64,000 nt of DNA, taken from a virus. The stretch lies in IMG/VR virus record IMGVR_UViG_3300035145_002886. One strand, 5' to 3'. Numbering within the stretch: the first letter of the stretch is position 1; each line of letters begins with the position of its first letter. A model generated the notes under the pieces. That model did no database searches, was not told the origin of the DNA, and saw only the letters and a list, made by a program, of their open reading frames with translations. Shown here in pieces: positions 9,602 through 14,007 of this stretch. Made by a program: the position numbers and the translations under genes.

Positions 9602-10486
9602 TTATTTAGCGATGTCTTCTGGTATTGGCAGACCCGACATTCCTAGTTTAACTTCAAATTCTTTAAAGATCTCGTCTCTCTTCTCAGGAAACTTAAACAT
9701 TGATGAGTTAATTAAATCTCTTAAACTTTCATAAGTCATCAAGTCTTTTACTTTTGCACCTTTAAAAAGAAGGTCTGCAATCTCTTCCGGTAGTCTTGTA
9801 ATCTCATAATCAAATTCTTTTAGTAATTTTGCATTTTTAACTAAACCTCGTTTTCCAACAAATGATTTGCGAACTCTAACGACTCCTTGGTTTAATCTAA
9901 TAACAAATGCTTCGTATTCTTTTGTTTGTCCCTCTTCGGTTTGATCTAAGATTTCAACAAATGATTTACCAATTGCTGACATTAAAAGGATATTTCTGTA
10001 TGCACCTTTATATTTTGACTCGTCTTTCGTAAAATCTGGAGAATGGTACATAAATCTACTCCAATTAATATCTCTTGATAACATTAAATCTACTTGACCT
10101 ACTCCATTATTTGCTTTACCTTCAATAGGAGCTGCAATTGATACCTGTTGGAATCCCACAGCCATTGAGGTGTCTAACCCCTTTCCTTTTAATAAATCAT
10201 TCATATCAAAAAGAACTTTACCAAGTGAAGTATTTAAGTGTCCTGCGATCTTATCGGCTGAAACTGCAATATCAATATCTCCACTAGTCTCTCCTGGATT
10301 CTTTTTTCCAGCACTACCAATAACTGCAGCATCTTCTCCAATGCCATCGATTCCAAGATGAGGGAATACATTTTTCTCAATCCATTCTAAAGTAGCTGCA
10401 ACCTCATGTTGCTCAAATGGTCTTGACTGTGCAATTGCGTTTCCGCTTTCACCTATAAACTGTTCAAATAATTTAACGTATCTCAT
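9602..10486 (-). CDS. Pol-beta-superfamily nucleotidyltransferase with capsid-targeting-like leader
   Basis: IGSAGKK...SGDIDIAV (GS + DxD), third Asp in GQVDLM; leader MRYVKLFEQFIGE. Confidence 0.7.
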   Translation of the reverse strand: MRYVKLFEQFIGESGNAIAQSRPFEQHEVAATLEWIEKNVFPHLGIDGIGEDAAVIGSAGKKNPGETSGDIDIAVSADKIAGHLNTSLGKVLFDMNDLLKGKGLDTSMAVGFQQVSIAAPIEGKANNGVGQVDLMLSRDINWSRFMYHSPDFTKDESKYKGAYRNILLMSAIGKSFVEILDQTEEGQTKEYEAFVIRLNQGVVRVRKSFVGKRGLVKNAKLLKEFDYEITRLPEEIADLLFKGAKVKDLMTYESLRDLINSSMFKFPEKRDEIFKEFEVKLGMSGLPIPEDIAK

Positions 10487-10495
10487 ATCTGTTTT

Positions 10496-10858
10496 TTATC
10501 TATTTGTCTTCTTATATAGAAGTTCTTGATCTTGTAAGAATCTTTTTAATGCAGGAATTACTTCATCCTCAGAAGTGATTTCAATACCCCAATTATCACT
10601 ACCAAAAATCTCACCATTTCTACAAATTTTAATATATCCGTAATCGGCGCGGACTGACAATTTATCGCGGGTTATAACACCATCCTCGTTGCTTGGTAAT
10701 ATTCCCTCTTTTTCAATAGTTGCAGGATATCCAGCCTTTTTAAGAATTTTGGTTATTTTTTTTAGGTTTAATTTTACACCAGTATTTCTTCCTATCTCTG
10801 TTACATTAAATTGATAGCGCTCGCTTGTAAATTGTTCAAATAATTTAACGTGTCTCAT
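10496..10858 (-). CDS. Small protein with capsid-targeting-like leader
   Basis: MRHVKLFEQFTSE; cargo not recognised. Confidence 0.7.
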   Translation of the reverse strand: MRHVKLFEQFTSERYQFNVTEIGRNTGVKLNLKKITKILKKAGYPATIEKEGILPSNEDGVITRDKLSVRADYGYIKICRNGEIFGSDNWGIEITSEDEVIPALKRFLQDQELLYKKTNR

Positions 10859-11454
10859 TAGATATGTTTTCTTAATTTTTCATAGTATTTATAAAGATAT
10901 TTCGGCACCATCTTTTCGAATGCTTCTCTATCCCCATTTGCCAGAGCCTCTCTGGTTTTGGTTCCACTTGGACCACCTTCAGCTCTTGCATCTACCATTT
11001 CTAGTTTAAAGTCAGGATGTACTATTGTATCTGTTTTTTCGCTAGTAATATATTTAATCTGTGGGGCATATGCCTTGATTCTGTCGCTTCCAGCACCAAC
11101 ACCTACAGTTTCATAACCTTGCTCTCTTAAGAATCTAACAAACCAAGGAATTACTGTTCTACCATAACTATTTGGGTAAATAAAGAAGTCTGCAATCTCT
11201 TTCTCATTCTTTGCGACCTCTTGTCCGATTTGAAGTAATAGGCTTTCAGGAAATGGAGACTCTTCGCGCTTTGAAACTATTTGCATTGCAACAACTGGCT
11301 TGCCAAAGATTTTAGCGGCATTCTTAAGCGCTGCAATGTGTCCATTATGAAATGGCTGAAATCTACCAGGCATTACAACAACTTCAGTACCCTCAATTGG
11401 TTGAGTTATGTCAGCCTCGTTAATGAATTGCTCAAATAGTTTAATGTGTTTCAT
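10858..11454 (-). CDS. HxGH (cytidylyltransferase-like, Rossmann) nucleotidyltransferase with capsid-targeting-like leader
   Basis: VVVMPGRFQPFHNGH, GAGSDR, SGTKTRE (SxT/SxxR); leader MKHIKLFEQFINE. Confidence 0.85.
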   Translation of the reverse strand: MKHIKLFEQFINEADITQPIEGTEVVVMPGRFQPFHNGHIAALKNAAKIFGKPVVAMQIVSKREESPFPESLLLQIGQEVAKNEKEIADFFIYPNSYGRTVIPWFVRFLREQGYETVGVGAGSDRIKAYAPQIKYITSEKTDTIVHPDFKLEMVDARAEGGPSGTKTREALANGDREAFEKMVPKYLYKYYEKLRKHI

Positions 11455-11456
11455 TG

Positions 11457-11828
11457 CTATTTTTTTATTTTTAGGCCTATTGCAATAACTGTTATCATTT
11501 TCTGGTTGTAGGCTCTAGACGGCATCGCTTTGCTTACAAATGGTAATTTCTTAACGCTTGATATAGCAGCCTTTAAAGAACTTTTTTCAATGAAAAAGTC
11601 TTTTTCATTGAAAAATCCAGTAACTGCCGTGGCCTGAATATTATAGCCTCCTATTACATTATCGTATTTTGGTAAAACTATTAATTTCCAGTCCCTATGA
11701 TCCGATCCTTTATACAAGGCATCTTCAATCTCTTTTTTGTGAGCTTCAAATACATCATTTATTTTATCATAGTCTTCCTTACTCATTGTTTCATTTAAGA
11801 AGTCTTCAAATATTTTAATGTGTTTCAT
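11457..11828 (-). CDS. Small protein with capsid-targeting-like leader
   Basis: MKHIKIFEDFLNE. Confidence 0.7.
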   Translation of the reverse strand: MKHIKIFEDFLNETMSKEDYDKINDVFEAHKKEIEDALYKGSDHRDWKLIVLPKYDNVIGGYNIQATAVTGFFNEKDFFIEKSSLKAAISSVKKLPFVSKAMPSRAYNQKMITVIAIGLKIKK

Positions 11829-11838
11829 TGTTATTTTT

Positions 11839-12159: not shown

Positions 12160-12181
12160 CTTTTGTTTTGTTTTTTCTAAA

Positions 12182-12436
12182 TTAAAAGTCGCCGTATAAT
12201 GTAATTTCAGTTTCAGGAATATCCATATAATCCATTAAATATTCTCCAAATTGTACTGCATCATCTTCTTTCTTAAATACAAACGTTACGAACCCCTTAG
12301 TAGAAGTCATTTTACCTTTTTTTGAATACACGTCTTTGAAAGCCTCAGCTGCTTCTTCAGCATATGCTGAAGTTACTTCAATCATTGGTTTTTTAGCTTC
12401 ATTTAAAAAGTCTTCAAATAGTTTGATGTGTTTCAT
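12182..12436 (-). CDS. Small protein with capsid-targeting-like leader
   Basis: MKHIKLFEDFLNE. Confidence 0.7.
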   Translation of the reverse strand: MKHIKLFEDFLNEAKKPMIEVTSAYAEEAAEAFKDVYSKKGKMTSTKGFVTFVFKKEDDAVQFGEYLMDYMDIPETEITLYGDF

Positions 12437-12467
12437 TTTTAGTGTTTTCTTTATAGCTATTGCAAGT

Positions 12468-12707
12468 TTAGGGTTTTTCAGTTTGCCATCTTTGAAAAAA
12501 GTCGTTTGCGGCTCTTGGACGACCTAATGTAACTTCAACTTCTTCGCCATCTTTAGCTTTTGCAAATAACTCTTGGTATGAACCATAGTTTTTGAAGTCT
12601 GTGACAGTGAACTCTTTTTTGTCTTCTTTGCGATATATCTGAGTGCCTACCCATCCTCCATCAGATCTTTCATTTACGAATTGTTCGAATAGTTTAATAT
12701 GCTTCAT
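12468..12707 (-). CDS. Small protein with capsid-targeting-like leader
   Basis: MKHIKLFEQFVNE. Confidence 0.7.
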   Translation of the reverse strand: MKHIKLFEQFVNERSDGGWVGTQIYRKEDKKEFTVTDFKNYGSYQELFAKAKDGEEVEVTLGRPRAANDFFQRWQTEKP

Positions 12708-12717
12708 TTTTAGTGTT

Positions 12718-14007
12718 TTATTTTTTGTATGCTAAGATACTTCTAATTTGGTGGATTGGTGCAAAAATACCGGTGTACTTATAGACTTTACCTTTATAAA
12801 CAAATGTAATACCTTCAGTTGGTACAATATTTTCTAGTCCACCGACTGCCGCAACTCTTGTTAGCTCATGTTCAAGCTTCTCAACATCAGTAGCGTCTCC
12901 ATTTTTTCTAATAGTATTAATAGTTGTTTCAATCTCTTTACGCATTTGCTCTCCAGCATGTGTTGGATTTGCCGATAAGAAAGCCTCCATATGCATCATC
13001 ATTTCGGTACCAACTTCTAGGAAAAGATTTTCAAGAGGTGCGTATATCTGCTTCTTAATCATCTTAGCGTTCTTTTTCTCAAAATCACTATATTCTTTTG
13101 TTAAATCAGGACCCATGTCCTTTTTCATTTTAGCAACGCTATATGACTTGTTAATTCCTCCAAGTCGGTTAGCAATTCCTTCGATTGACTCTTCTGGAAT
13201 ATTCATGTTTAACTCTCTAACAACATTGATCGCTCTACCAACAACAAAATCATGCACTGTTGAATTTAGGTTAATACCTGCATCCTTCATGATTTCGTTT
13301 AGTTTCTTATTATAATATTGTGCTCTTGATTTAGTGTTCTTAAATGGTCTAACAGGAATGTCCTGTGGTCCACGAACGTAAAACATCTCCTGAGCGGCTG
13401 CATTTGCATCTGCAATCATTTTACCAAGATCACGGCCAGCCTGTTTGTCTTCACCGACTACATTTCCATCAACATCATATTCTACAATACCGTGAAATAC
13501 TAATAGGTCTTGTCCGTAAGGAACCGTGTTTTGAGTTACTGGCGTCATAATTTCAACGCTTGCAAATTTTGTACCTTCGCCAAACATCTTTTCCTTATCG
13601 CCAGGAGAAAGAGCTCCAATTGAAGCGCTCAAATCACGCATTGCTGCGTTATATGCTATTTCAATATCTCCTCTGTCTTTAAACTTTGCGGCAAGATCTG
13701 CAGAGGTCATTGCATTTTCACCAGCATTCTTAAGATGACTCTTATTTCTTGCGGCAATTAGTTGACCATTCTTCCATGAAATTGAAAGCTGCTGTCCGTC
13801 AGTTTTTTCTTGGACAAAGTTTTCAGGGCCAAATGCTCCTTGAACCGTAGCGTCAATCATATCCTTTACATCCGTCATTGTTAGACCTAGGTCCTCAAAT
13901 GGATGCGTAAGATGCCCATAGGCTCCACCTTCATTAACAGATTCGAGCCCAGTATCCCTGAGCTCTTTTTCTGTTAAAAATTCTTCGTATGTAAATAACT
14001 TATTCAT
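12718..14007 (-). CDS. ATP-dependent RNA/DNA-ligase-fold nucleotidyltransferase with capsid-targeting-like leader
   Basis: Motif I QEKTDG, III VEI, IIIa VFHG, IV TEGITF, V YKYTG; leader MNKLFTYEEFLTE...VNE. Confidence 0.7.
   Translation of the reverse strand: MNKLFTYEEFLTEKELRDTGLESVNEGGAYGHLTHPFEDLGLTMTDVKDMIDATVQGAFGPENFVQEKTDGQQLSISWKNGQLIAARNKSHLKNAGENAMTSADLAAKFKDRGDIEIAYNAAMRDLSASIGALSPGDKEKMFGEGTKFASVEIMTPVTQNTVPYGQDLLVFHGIVEYDVDGNVVGEDKQAGRDLGKMIADANAAAQEMFYVRGPQDIPVRPFKNTKSRAQYYNKKLNEIMKDAGINLNSTVHDFVVGRAINVVRELNMNIPEESIEGIANRLGGINKSYSVAKMKKDMGPDLTKEYSDFEKKNAKMIKKQIYAPLENLFLEVGTEMMMHMEAFLSANPTHAGEQMRKEIETTINTIRKNGDATDVEKLEHELTRVAAVGGLENIVPTEGITFVYKGKVYKYTGIFAPIHQIRSILAYKK

Follow-up and report, generated by a model that had tools for sequence, protein, structure and literature searches.

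A 13-residue leader, most likely a T4-type capsid-targeting propeptide, begins the genes of a variable cassette array in an uncultured T4-like phage

The window, which is the whole stretch of 64,000 nt analysed here (IMG/VR record IMGVR_UViG_3300035145_002886), contains seven tandem minus-strand genes (9602-12707) with a common 39-nt 5' end. This repeat is the coding sequence of a 13-residue leader, MKHIKLFEQFINE, which was found on about 20 genes of the 166.6-kb record of this uncultured T4-like phage (a partial genome, 59% complete). By analogy, the leader most likely serves as a capsid-targeting propeptide of the T4 type. Related phages carry different sets of leader-led genes, and some of the differences are bounded by the leader repeats.

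The leader and its cassette array

A repeat search returned one family of seven copies, one at the 5' end of each of seven successive minus-strand genes. The near-identities described in the initial annotation were reproduced exactly (11421-11454 versus 12126-12159, 33/34 nt; 11790-11828 versus 12398-12436, 36/39; 10461-10486 versus 10833-10858, 25/26), as was the identity of the 12 nt preceding two ATGs (12437-12448 and 12708-12719; TTTTAGTGTTTT on the plus strand, AAAACACTAAAA on the gene strand). It had also been noticed that the likeness stops past the leader, and in-register identity indeed drops sharply after codon 13. The longest exact run shared by any two array leaders is 24 nt. The repeats are translated and show no inverted-repeat structure. 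The features of the region are, in the direction of the genes:

16256-16263, minus strand: GATATATA motif, about 40 nt upstream of the 736-aa gene
14008-16218, minus strand: 736-aa modular acidic protein, first gene past the promoter-like GATATATA motif
12718-14007, minus strand: conserved 429-aa flank gene with the variant leader MNKLFTYEEFLTE; upstream anchor of the variable cassettes
12669-12707, minus strand: leader MKHIKLFEQFVNE, starting the 79-aa cassette gene (12468-12707)
12398-12436, minus strand: leader MKHIKLFEDFLNE, starting the 84-aa cassette gene (12182-12436)
12121-12159, minus strand: leader MKHIKLFEKFINE, starting the 106-aa cassette gene (11839-12159)
11790-11828, minus strand: leader MKHIKIFEDFLNE, starting the 123-aa cassette gene (11457-11828)
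11416-11454, minus strand: leader MKHIKLFEQFINE, starting the 198-aa gene (10858-11454), a conserved anchor of the array
10820-10858, minus strand: leader MRHVKLFEQFTSE, starting the 120-aa gene (10496-10858)
10448-10486, minus strand: leader MRYVKLFEQFIGE, starting the 294-aa gene (9602-10486)
8329-9594, minus strand: conserved 421-aa flank gene without canonical leader; downstream anchor
5775-8306, minus strand: 843-aa modular protein starting MNFQDFLNE
5414-5452, minus strand: in-frame internal leader copy MKHLKNFESFLNE, residues 108-120 of a 287-aa gene (4910-5773)
4861-4886, minus strand: strong terminator-like hairpin, the only one on the gene strand, at the end of the tagged block

The leader has the consensus M-K-H-I/V-K-L-F-E-x-F-I/V/L-x-E, and 20 PSSM matches scoring at least 14 were obtained, against 0.15 expected from shuffled proteins. 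After leader removal the cargo families showed no mutual relation by BLASTP. The tagged proteins comprise 79-843 aa, the mature cargo has a pI of 4.6-9.3, many of the proteins are acidic and large (pI 4.6-6.5), and several are enzymes. The cargo of the 198-aa gene is an HxGH nucleotidyltransferase with a PPAT/NadD-like fold; in the predicted model of this protein the leader lies outside the fold (pLDDT 56-75; domain above 93). The 294-aa gene product, for which a Pfam search gave no match, is by our own reading of a GS...DIDIA motif a putative nucleotidyltransferase. The leader also occurs on dispersed single genes, one of them in the head module. The array itself is located among replication genes, outside the head module.

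Almost all homologues of the 198-aa cargo keep the leader peptide, down to 45-50% identity. With a DNA pattern search, at least 140 leader instances from at least 118 IMG/VR stretches were obtained. Among the matches listed, the sequences diverge beyond the leader, position 11 is I/V/L in 108/140, position 12 is any residue and position 13 is E in 112/140 (80%), tallies that are informative only at positions left free by the search pattern.

The GATATATA motif or a near-identical one was also detected upstream of the prohead protease, of the portal gene (as GAATATATA), of a 513-aa gene that adjoins the capsid protein gene, and of the 843-aa gene (8330-8337), and no such motif is present inside the cassette array. 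The intergenic gaps of the array measure -1 to 31 nt, none of them contains a terminator-like hairpin on the gene strand, and sigma-70-like matches are fewer than the shuffled expectation (25 vs 39.9).

Resemblance to the T4 capsid-targeting sequence

The T4 proteins IPII and IPIII begin with MKTYQEFIAE|A. In this capsid-targeting sequence (CTS), residues 4 and 7 serve targeting and residues 8 and 10 processing (PMC9026906). All four functionally mapped positions are kept in the leader (Y4/F7, F7/F10, I8/I11, E10/E13, T4 residue first), within a similarity that spans only about 7 residues. The C-terminus of the leader is hydrophobic-x-Glu, a protease-type cut site; the prohead proteases of T4, phiKZ and SPN3US cut after Glu in an x-x-E motif (PMC5694885). 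The DNA phenomenon seen in the array leaders also exists in T4, where ipII and ipIII are identical over 47 nt (-15 to +32).

The phage encodes a prohead protease (Peptidase_S77, PF03420 at 54 bits; phrog_207; ORF of 642 aa), a gp23-type capsid protein (PF07068 at 150 bits) and a portal (phrog_213), and a 134-aa leader-tagged gene lies between portal and protease; a separate scaffold gene was not identified in the phage record. The phage belongs to a distant T4-like lineage, and its capsid protein is closest to those of huge uncultured and Lak phages. Capsid targeting and subsequent cutting of the leader are the most likely functions by this analogy.

Selection on peptide or on DNA

The initial annotation had taken the near-identity of the leader DNA, with most synonymous sites conserved, as a sign of recombination. 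Its synonymous part is weakly true: the same codon is used at 110/178 shared residues (62%), a modest excess over the 52% expected from whole-gene codon usage and the 55% expected from N-terminal codon usage (97.4 +/- 9.8, P=0.12). Mean nucleotide identity of the leaders was 0.780, compared with 0.728 +/- 0.016 in simulations (P=0.002). About 93% of the near-identity is explained by the conserved peptide together with codon bias, and it is therefore no evidence of recombination. The proposed comparison of leader dS gave the same picture, as synonymous conservation among orthologues was 0.77 in leaders vs 0.74 in gene bodies, with no extra conservation. Leaders are not homogenised (similarity 0.776 within a genome vs 0.772 between genomes), and neither this nor the synonymous-site comparison gave a sign of gene conversion among them. 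In the explanation favoured below, the similarity of the leader DNA is proposed to be a by-product of selection on the peptide.

Cassette content and junctions in related phages

Five relatives (L003-L007) with flanking proteins 84-93% identical (84-96% in the comparison between the anchors) each have their own cassette set, so the gene content is not fixed. The variable cassettes lie between the 429-aa anchor and the 198-aa/421-aa anchors, as in a hyperplastic locus of the internal protein (IP) type. The cargo of the 84-aa gene is 60% identical to residues 208-276 within a 698-aa polyprotein of L004, that of the 106-aa gene was found among the relatives only in L004/L005 (77% identity), and the 123-aa gene has a homologue (53%) at another position in the same two phages. 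The 120-aa gene exists as a divergent allele in L003/L004 (62-63% identity) and is missing from L006/L007. In L004, a duplicated cassette family (fam15) is present on both sides of another cassette.

Modules that are free-standing in one phage lie within polyproteins in another, with fusion or fission at leader motifs. Residues 410-522 of the 843-aa protein, starting MKNAFVYESFNGFVESLNE, correspond to a free-standing, leader-led 167-aa gene in L006, and the region of L004 matching the 287-aa gene is split into two genes at the internal leader. In relatives, the 294-aa gene contains an extra module of 77-157 aa between the first leader and a second, internal copy. The length of the 736-aa protein varies from 467 to 736 aa across the relatives.

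Breakpoints had been expected in the leaders, and the homology blocks stop at +38 to +44 of leader genes. Leader zones, which make up at most 7.5% of the DNA, contain 52/179 block ends (the pairs compared are not independent); this is partly expected, because the aligner extends any gene-boundary breakpoint through the conserved leader. L003 has a 231-nt module between identical 21-nt direct repeats inside two leader copies, and at this site the window has one leader copy and no module. In a second leader-to-leader indel, two L004 genes correspond to one fused L003 gene. Both indels are in frame and lie between direct leader repeats; they could result from replication slippage instead of a recombinase.

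In a well-resolved exchange between L003 and L004, the right-hand crossover falls within the conserved 198-aa gene at a depth of about 170 nt, and 27 of the 29 mismatches are located in the first 170 nt. Leaders are therefore not required for every swap, and the boundary inside a conserved gene points to ordinary homologous recombination. The phage encodes a RecA/UvsX-type recombinase, and small patches of homology suffice for T4-type recombination (PMC2839356). No tyrosine integrase (PF00589) was found in the 166.6 kb of the record (59% complete). The suggested integrase-free shuffling of cassettes thus holds in part: variable content, leader junctions, indels and the recombinase speak for it, but the DNA identity is uninformative and the leaders are not homogenised. 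The phenomenon is of a known kind, that of T-even IP loci, and not a new class of cassette array.

Proposed and alternative explanations

A combination of a CTS-like head-loading tag with leader repeats used as crossover or slippage sites, accompanied by homologous recombination in the flanks, is the explanation that we consider reasonably probable. The leader would dock the protein onto the prohead scaffolding core, as the CTS does in T4, a T4-type prohead protease would then remove it after the final Glu (E13), and the mature cargo would stay in the head and be ejected along with the DNA. The tag is carried by about 20 unrelated proteins, among them enzymes and multi-module proteins with the motif at internal module boundaries. 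The array would be a late, promoter-less and tightly packed operon, and because every cassette begins with the same 39 nt, the leader repeats would be the sole homology among unrelated neighbours. Crossover or slippage at these repeats may have deleted, inserted, fused and split cassettes in frame, and whole blocks would also be swapped between related phages via homologous recombination in the conserved flank genes. A wider generalisation is possible but doubtful: in a large uncultured clade of T4-like and huge phages (probably infecting Bacteroidota), the 13-residue address-and-cut tag may be a plug-in standard that loads any gene or domain into the capsid, its DNA doubling as an in-frame recombination linker. 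Cargo would be shuffled as genes or as protease-cleavable polyproteins, a phage counterpart of exon shuffling, yielding a fast-changing injected arsenal that includes nucleotide- and RNA-modifying enzymes.

It is unlikely that the leader is a peptide signal only and that turnover occurs through ordinary homologous recombination in the conserved flank genes of relatives infecting the same cell, with an occasional illegitimate event. Junctions would then seem leader-centred merely since each gene starts with a conserved leader, and the small excess identity in the codon tests, the absence of concerted evolution of leaders, the L003/L004 crossover within the 198-aa gene body and exact leader repeats of at most 24 nt agree with this. 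It accounts poorly, however, for two frame-keeping indels that lie between direct leader repeats (in one case an identical repeat of 21 nt), and for several proteins fused or split exactly at leader motifs; illegitimate recombination seldom yields in-frame junctions with one intact leader. The strict first reading, in which selection maintains the repeats at the nucleotide level because an integrase-free cassette array or gene accordion recombines at them, is highly improbable. A repeat at every cassette boundary, the differing content among relatives and the duplicated family around another cassette in L004 would fit, but synonymous variation is about as codon bias predicts, leader dS equals gene-body dS, and across deep divergence the peptide is kept and not the DNA. 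Moreover, the motif is also borne by scattered single genes, one of which lies in the head module, and leader similarity is no greater within than between genomes.

Another peptide signal, for a different assembly or compartment, for protease-timed activation or degradation, or for chaperone binding, is improbable as well. Packaging is proposed by sequence analogy, the array lies among replication genes instead of in the head module, and in contrast to the internal proteins of T4 most of the cargo is enzymatic or acidic. Against such a signal, the leader matches the functional residues of the T4 CTS and ends in a Glu cut motif of the T4-type protease, a tagged gene lies between portal and protease, the motif upstream of the array is common to head genes, and the leader has no hydrophobic stretch suited to secretion. 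An expression signal at the RNA or DNA level in the conserved 5' end, e.g. a translation-initiation enhancer, can hardly be credited. The genes share AAA-rich, A/T-rich first codons and a short upstream stretch rich in A, to which the 12 identical nt before two ATGs belong, but codons vary where amino acids are conserved, the motif is also found in frame within long proteins, where initiation plays no part, and the hydrophobic-x-E end has no obvious meaning at the RNA level.

If the tag works as in T4, about twenty different proteins would be packed in the head, far above the three of T4, among them adenylyltransferase-, kinase-, HD- and ligase-like enzymes. The internal proteins of T4 are injected to counter restriction (PMC12373910). 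On the same condition, the array would list, in readable form, the counter-defence or takeover proteins of the first minute in abundant environmental phages, and the tag would be a simple rule to find such proteins in metagenomes, since one DNA pattern matched at least 118 stretches. The comparative data provide a concrete and testable case of a translated signal that also channels in-frame shuffling of genes and domains.

Comparison with known systems

The T4 CTS (on IPI, IPII, IPIII and Alt; removed by gp21) is likewise a short N-terminal propeptide on otherwise unrelated proteins. The leader agrees with it at the aromatic, F, I and E positions, both phages have a T4-type protease and capsid protein, and in ipII/ipIII as in the array the DNA identity covers the leader and ends after it. 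The T4 CTS comprises 10 residues vs 13 here, and 3-4 genes are tagged in T4 vs about 20 in this partial genome. According to PMC9026906, the IPs of T-even phages are small and basic, and the cargo here is not of the small, basic, DNA-associated type; unlike in T4, it includes enzymes and modular proteins of 700-850 aa, many of them acidic, and module boundaries within proteins carry the motif again. In phiKZ, 201phi2-1 and SPN3US, many head-internal ejection proteins are also cut after Glu by a T4-related protease, but unlike the leader their propeptides are mostly long (>100 residues), with no single common short tag.

Like the cassettes here, those of integrons lack promoters of their own, follow one another behind a single promoter and are exchanged at boundary sequences that recur. 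The array is not an integron, as it has no attC-like structured site and no integrase (PF00589) was detected in the 166.6-kb record (59% complete), and its repeat is a translated peptide tag. Some tandem duplication (fam15 in L004) resembles a poxvirus-type gene accordion; amplification of the copy number of one gene was not seen in the window. In the PeSL cassettes of RB49 and phi1 (Arbiol et al. 2010, PMC2839356), ORFans in the plastic parts of T4-type genomes lie between short conserved repeats, and genes are deleted or inserted when these repeats recombine, as here. With a length of about 100 bp, PeSLs do not code for protein but regulate, providing each cassette with its own promoter and terminator. 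The array is not of this type, its tiny gaps containing no intergenic promoter and stem-loop for each cassette; its repeats are coding and 39 nt long, its cassettes are promoter-less in one operon, and recombination leads to in-frame protein fusions.

The T-even IP loci are hyperplastic according to Repoila et al. (1994), as reported in PMC2839356, PMC3012670 and PMC12373910, and in these accounts, as in the array, close relatives differ in their CTS-tagged genes. Conserved boundary sequences were proposed to limit and drive shuffling and plasticity there (PMC2839356). As described in that account, these elements are intergenic early-promoter and stem-loop motifs, whereas here the leader-coding DNA is the only repeat, because the short gaps are without promoter- or terminator-like sites. 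Relative to the internal-protein loci of T-even phages, the array is a variant, expanded and without promoters. Its principle, a CTS combined with plastic IP loci, is textbook T4 biology, and the gain lies in scale and detail, not in kind.

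Leader-bearing genes in the window

All genes of the region are located on the minus strand. A repeat search of the window revealed a single repeat family with seven copies, one at the start of each of seven genes in a row:

9602-10486, minus strand, leader-bearing gene, 294 aa
10496-10858, minus strand, leader-bearing gene, 120 aa
10858-11454, minus strand, leader-bearing gene, 198 aa
11457-11828, minus strand, leader-bearing gene, 123 aa
11839-12159, minus strand, leader-bearing gene, 106 aa
12182-12436, minus strand, leader-bearing gene, 84 aa
12468-12707, minus strand, leader-bearing gene, 79 aa

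The four matches between gene starts reported in the initial annotation were reproduced exactly. Its statement that similarity ends after the leader also holds, as in-register identity was high from about -15 to +39 of the start codons and at background right past codon 13. The 39-nt repeat is translated into MKHIKLFEQFINE and close variants, the 13-residue leader; the remainder of the protein of such a cassette is referred to as cargo. About 20 leader genes were found by a motif scan in the whole IMG/VR record containing the window (G000, 166.6 kb), nearly all with the leader at the extreme N-terminus, and a position matrix yielded 20 matches in the record at a score giving 0.15 in shuffled proteins. 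A few copies occur in frame within a gene, e.g. residues 108-120 of a 287-aa gene (4910-5773).

The gaps between the cassettes range from -1 to 31 nt. No terminator-like hairpin was detected on the gene strand in any of these gaps, and sigma-70-like matches across the region were fewer than the shuffled expectation. The motif GATATATA is present at the start of the tagged block (16256-16263) and before the 843-aa gene (8330-8337), and motifs of this type also occur in G000 upstream of the genes for the prohead protease, the portal (as GAATATATA) and another head-module protein (513-aa gene). They are located 25-40 nt upstream of the head genes and the two tagged transcription units, and no copy of GATATATA lies inside the array. 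This motif is a candidate late promoter.

The phage and its head genes

The record (36% G+C, estimated 59% complete) belongs to a distant T4-like myovirus. It encodes a gp23-type capsid protein, a Peptidase_S77 prohead protease (642-aa ORF), a portal, baseplate proteins, a gp41-type helicase, a primase, a gp32-type SSB and a RecA/UvsX-type recombinase. A Pfam search for UvsY gave no match, as did its positive control, and a tyrosine integrase was not found in the 166.6 kb of this 59% complete record. The capsid protein is closest to that of an uncultured 462-kb phage (51% identity), followed by Lak megaphages of Prevotella (38%). A leader-tagged 134-aa gene is located between portal and protease.

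The N-terminus of the capsid protein (G000 41904-43391) reads MANLINE followed by A and thus has the same L/I-x-E|A motif. In the protease ORF (G000 43482-45410; L131, a locus covering this ORF, 3486-5411), the S77 domain comprises only residues ~19-140 of 642; the long region C-terminal to it may take the place of a distinct scaffold protein.

The leader as a putative propeptide

In T4, the internal proteins IPII and IPIII start with MKTYQEFIAE followed by A, and IPI starts with MKTFKEFTS. The first ten residues of IPIII are sufficient for head incorporation; within this capsid-targeting sequence (CTS), residues 4 and 7 are the main determinants of targeting, and residues 8 and 10 those of processing (PMC9026906). 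The Y, F, I and E at positions 4, 7, 8 and 10 correspond to F7, F10, I11 and E13 of the leader. An Asp in place of the final Glu prevents processing in T4. Prohead proteases of T4-type and giant phages all cleave behind the Glu of a short x-x-E motif (PMC5694885).

A scan of IMG/VR with a degenerate DNA pattern limited to codons 1-10 matched at least 118 stretches. Among the matches listed (140 instances), positions 11-13, which the pattern left unconstrained, were I/V/L (108/140), any residue, and E (112/140); among these matches the sequences diverge past position 13, and some leaders are longer, extending to an LNE or VNE further on. A leader of this type, e.g. MKNIQTFEEFILE, is retained by nearly all homologues of the 198-aa cargo, even where identity falls to 45-50%, and several of them carry an extra module between two leader-like motifs. 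In the AlphaFold model of the 198-aa protein, pLDDT was 56-75 for residues 1-20 and exceeded 93 across most of the domain, which is predicted to adopt a PPAT/NadD-like HxGH nucleotidyltransferase fold.

The agreement with the T4 residues, the terminal Glu, the conservation in homologues, the low model confidence of the leader and the motif shared with head genes therefore make a T4-type address-and-cut propeptide the best reading. The repeats are first of all a peptide tag and, with good probability, a capsid-targeting propeptide. By analogy with T4, we infer that the tagged proteins would be packaged and cleaved.

Cargo and other tagged proteins

The 79-, 84-, 106- and 123-aa cargos were assigned to no family by PHROGs or Pfam. 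The 429-aa protein appears ligase-like (KxDG) and the 294-aa protein Pol-beta-like (GS...DxD) by motif reading only, and these readings gained no further support because a PDB sequence search with both proteins gave no match. The 843-aa (5775-8306) and 736-aa (14008-16218) proteins share an internal module of ~43 aa (EGN.FGAARAKAIADGE...), and among relatives these proteins range from 467 to 843 aa through gain, loss and permutation of modules.

Tagged genes outside the window (G000 125095-126063, 144897-145760 and 134490-137483) encode, among others, an HD-domain protein and a P-loop kinase (AAA_33/Zeta-toxin/polynucleotide-kinase-like), and in some of them a leader-like motif recurs internally. 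Taken with the 429-aa protein and its KxDG motif, the kinase and the HD protein hint at what may be a packaged RNA-repair-like set.

DNA identity of the leaders

The near-identity of the gene starts had been taken as a sign of recombination. Under a null model based on whole-gene codon usage, the same codon was used at 110 of 178 shared residues compared to 93 expected, and mean leader identity was 0.78 compared to 0.72. When codons 1-14 of 162 untagged genes supplied the codon usage for a second null, the values were 110 versus 97.4 +/- 9.8 (P=0.12) and 0.780 versus 0.728 (P=0.002), and the best leader pair (0.923) was unexceptional (P=0.06). Leaders of the cluster were no more alike than dispersed leaders. 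Concerted evolution of leaders within a genome was rejected (0.776 within and 0.772 between genomes), as was extra synonymous constraint in leaders of orthologues (synonymous identity 0.77 in the leader and 0.74 in the body). The longest exact run between any two leaders of the window is 24 nt; T4 ipII and ipIII are a stronger case of such near-identity, as they match exactly over 47 nt (-15 to +32). Peptide and codon bias account almost fully for the near-identity of the leader DNA, and considering the codon nulls, the comparison within and between genomes and the orthologues, this near-identity alone is therefore not evidence of recombination.

Cassette turnover and junctions

Since a DNA search with the region found no relative among GenBank phages, relatives were drawn from IMG/VR with the 429-aa flank protein (12718-14007) as query. 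This yielded seven loci with identities of 93, 93, 93, 85, 84, 59 and 59%.

Table. Cassettes between the 429-aa and 198-aa genes (sizes in aa) in the window and in relative loci
Window: 79, 84, 106, 123
L003: 82, 119
L004 (= L005): 82, 104, 85, 148
L006: none
L007: 147, 142

As the initial annotation had anticipated, cassette content differs among relatives and the junctions lie at leaders. The 120-aa cassette has a 62-63% identical allele in L003 and L004 and is absent from L006 and L007. The 123-aa cargo has a 53% identical homologue elsewhere in the order of L004, and residues 208-276 within a 698-aa L004 protein match the 84-aa cargo at 60% identity. In L006, a free-standing, leader-led 167-aa gene corresponds to residues 410-522 of the 843-aa protein of the window, a segment that still starts with MKNAFVYESFNGFVESLNE.

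An unrelated 104-aa cassette of L004 is flanked by two paralogous cassettes of family fam15, 82 and 85 aa in size (10396-11244), a local duplication consistent with unequal exchange between leaders. In more distant relatives (L011, L014, L016, L022, L034, L035, L056, L080, L087 and L094, compared with window 8329-14007), homologues of the 429-, 421- and 198-aa genes follow the helicase side by side in this order, and L087 carries the whole trio twice, as diverged copies. The lineage of the window has a rearranged trio with cassettes placed in between.

When the loci were compared pairwise by BLASTN, the long homology blocks in every pair stopped at +38 to +44 of a leader gene or started at most ~20 nt before one. 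Block ends fell inside leader zones in 52 of 179 cases, these zones being at most 7.5% of the DNA, an excess that is inflated because the pairs are non-independent and the aligner extends through any conserved leader. The L003 homologue of the 294-aa gene contains a 231-nt module between two leader copies sharing an identical 21-nt repeat; the window gene has a single hybrid leader and lacks the module, and outgroup L008 likewise carries the short form. Similarly, the 201-aa and 183-aa genes of L004 correspond to one 288-aa gene in L003, in which the leader copy at the junction shows homology to both of those in L004. Both leader-bounded indels keep the reading frame and carry the hallmark of recombination or slippage between direct repeats at leaders. 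Single-switch chimerism of the L006 and L007 leaders of families fam2 and fam3 was dropped as an explanation, being compatible with the data and not significant at only three informative sites.

The cassette difference between L003 and L004 points to another route. Both are 99-100% identical rightwards from about +170 of the 198-aa gene, 74-90% identical over its first 170 nt and ~95% identical left of the variable segment; 27 of 29 mismatches in this gene fall into the first 170 nt, nine of them in the leader. The identity step at about +170 rules out leader crossovers on the right-hand side, and the exchange used homology inside the conserved gene. Ordinary homologous recombination between relatives thus moves whole cassette blocks as well, with no requirement for leader crossovers.

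The proposed recombinational shuffling at the repeats therefore stands in part: content is fluid, junctions coincide with the tag and two repeat-bounded in-frame indels are present, whereas recombination is not what maintains the similarity of the leader DNA, and some exchanges take place away from leaders.

Comparison with known systems

T-even phages possess two highly variable loci, which between them hold over 30 variants of CTS-tagged internal proteins, and it was proposed in 1994 that conserved elements at these loci drive and confine shuffling (PMC2839356; PMC3012670; PMC12373910). Ip1-3 are injected and inhibit restriction enzymes of the GmrSD type (PMC12373910). The PeSL cassettes of RB49 and phi1 are another precedent for repeat-mediated modular shuffling in T4-type genomes, backed by mini-circle evidence from inverse PCR (Arbiol et al. 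2010, PMC2839356). A literal search for the leader string found no paper in the literature library covered. The array differs from what is known in the number of tagged genes (~20), in the nature of the tagged proteins, which are enzymes and large acidic modular proteins, in the reuse of the tag inside proteins and in the phage lineage. Intergenic regulatory repeats are also absent here, which leaves the translated leader as the sole repeat. The array is an expanded variant of T-even-type tagged loci, which are already known in principle.
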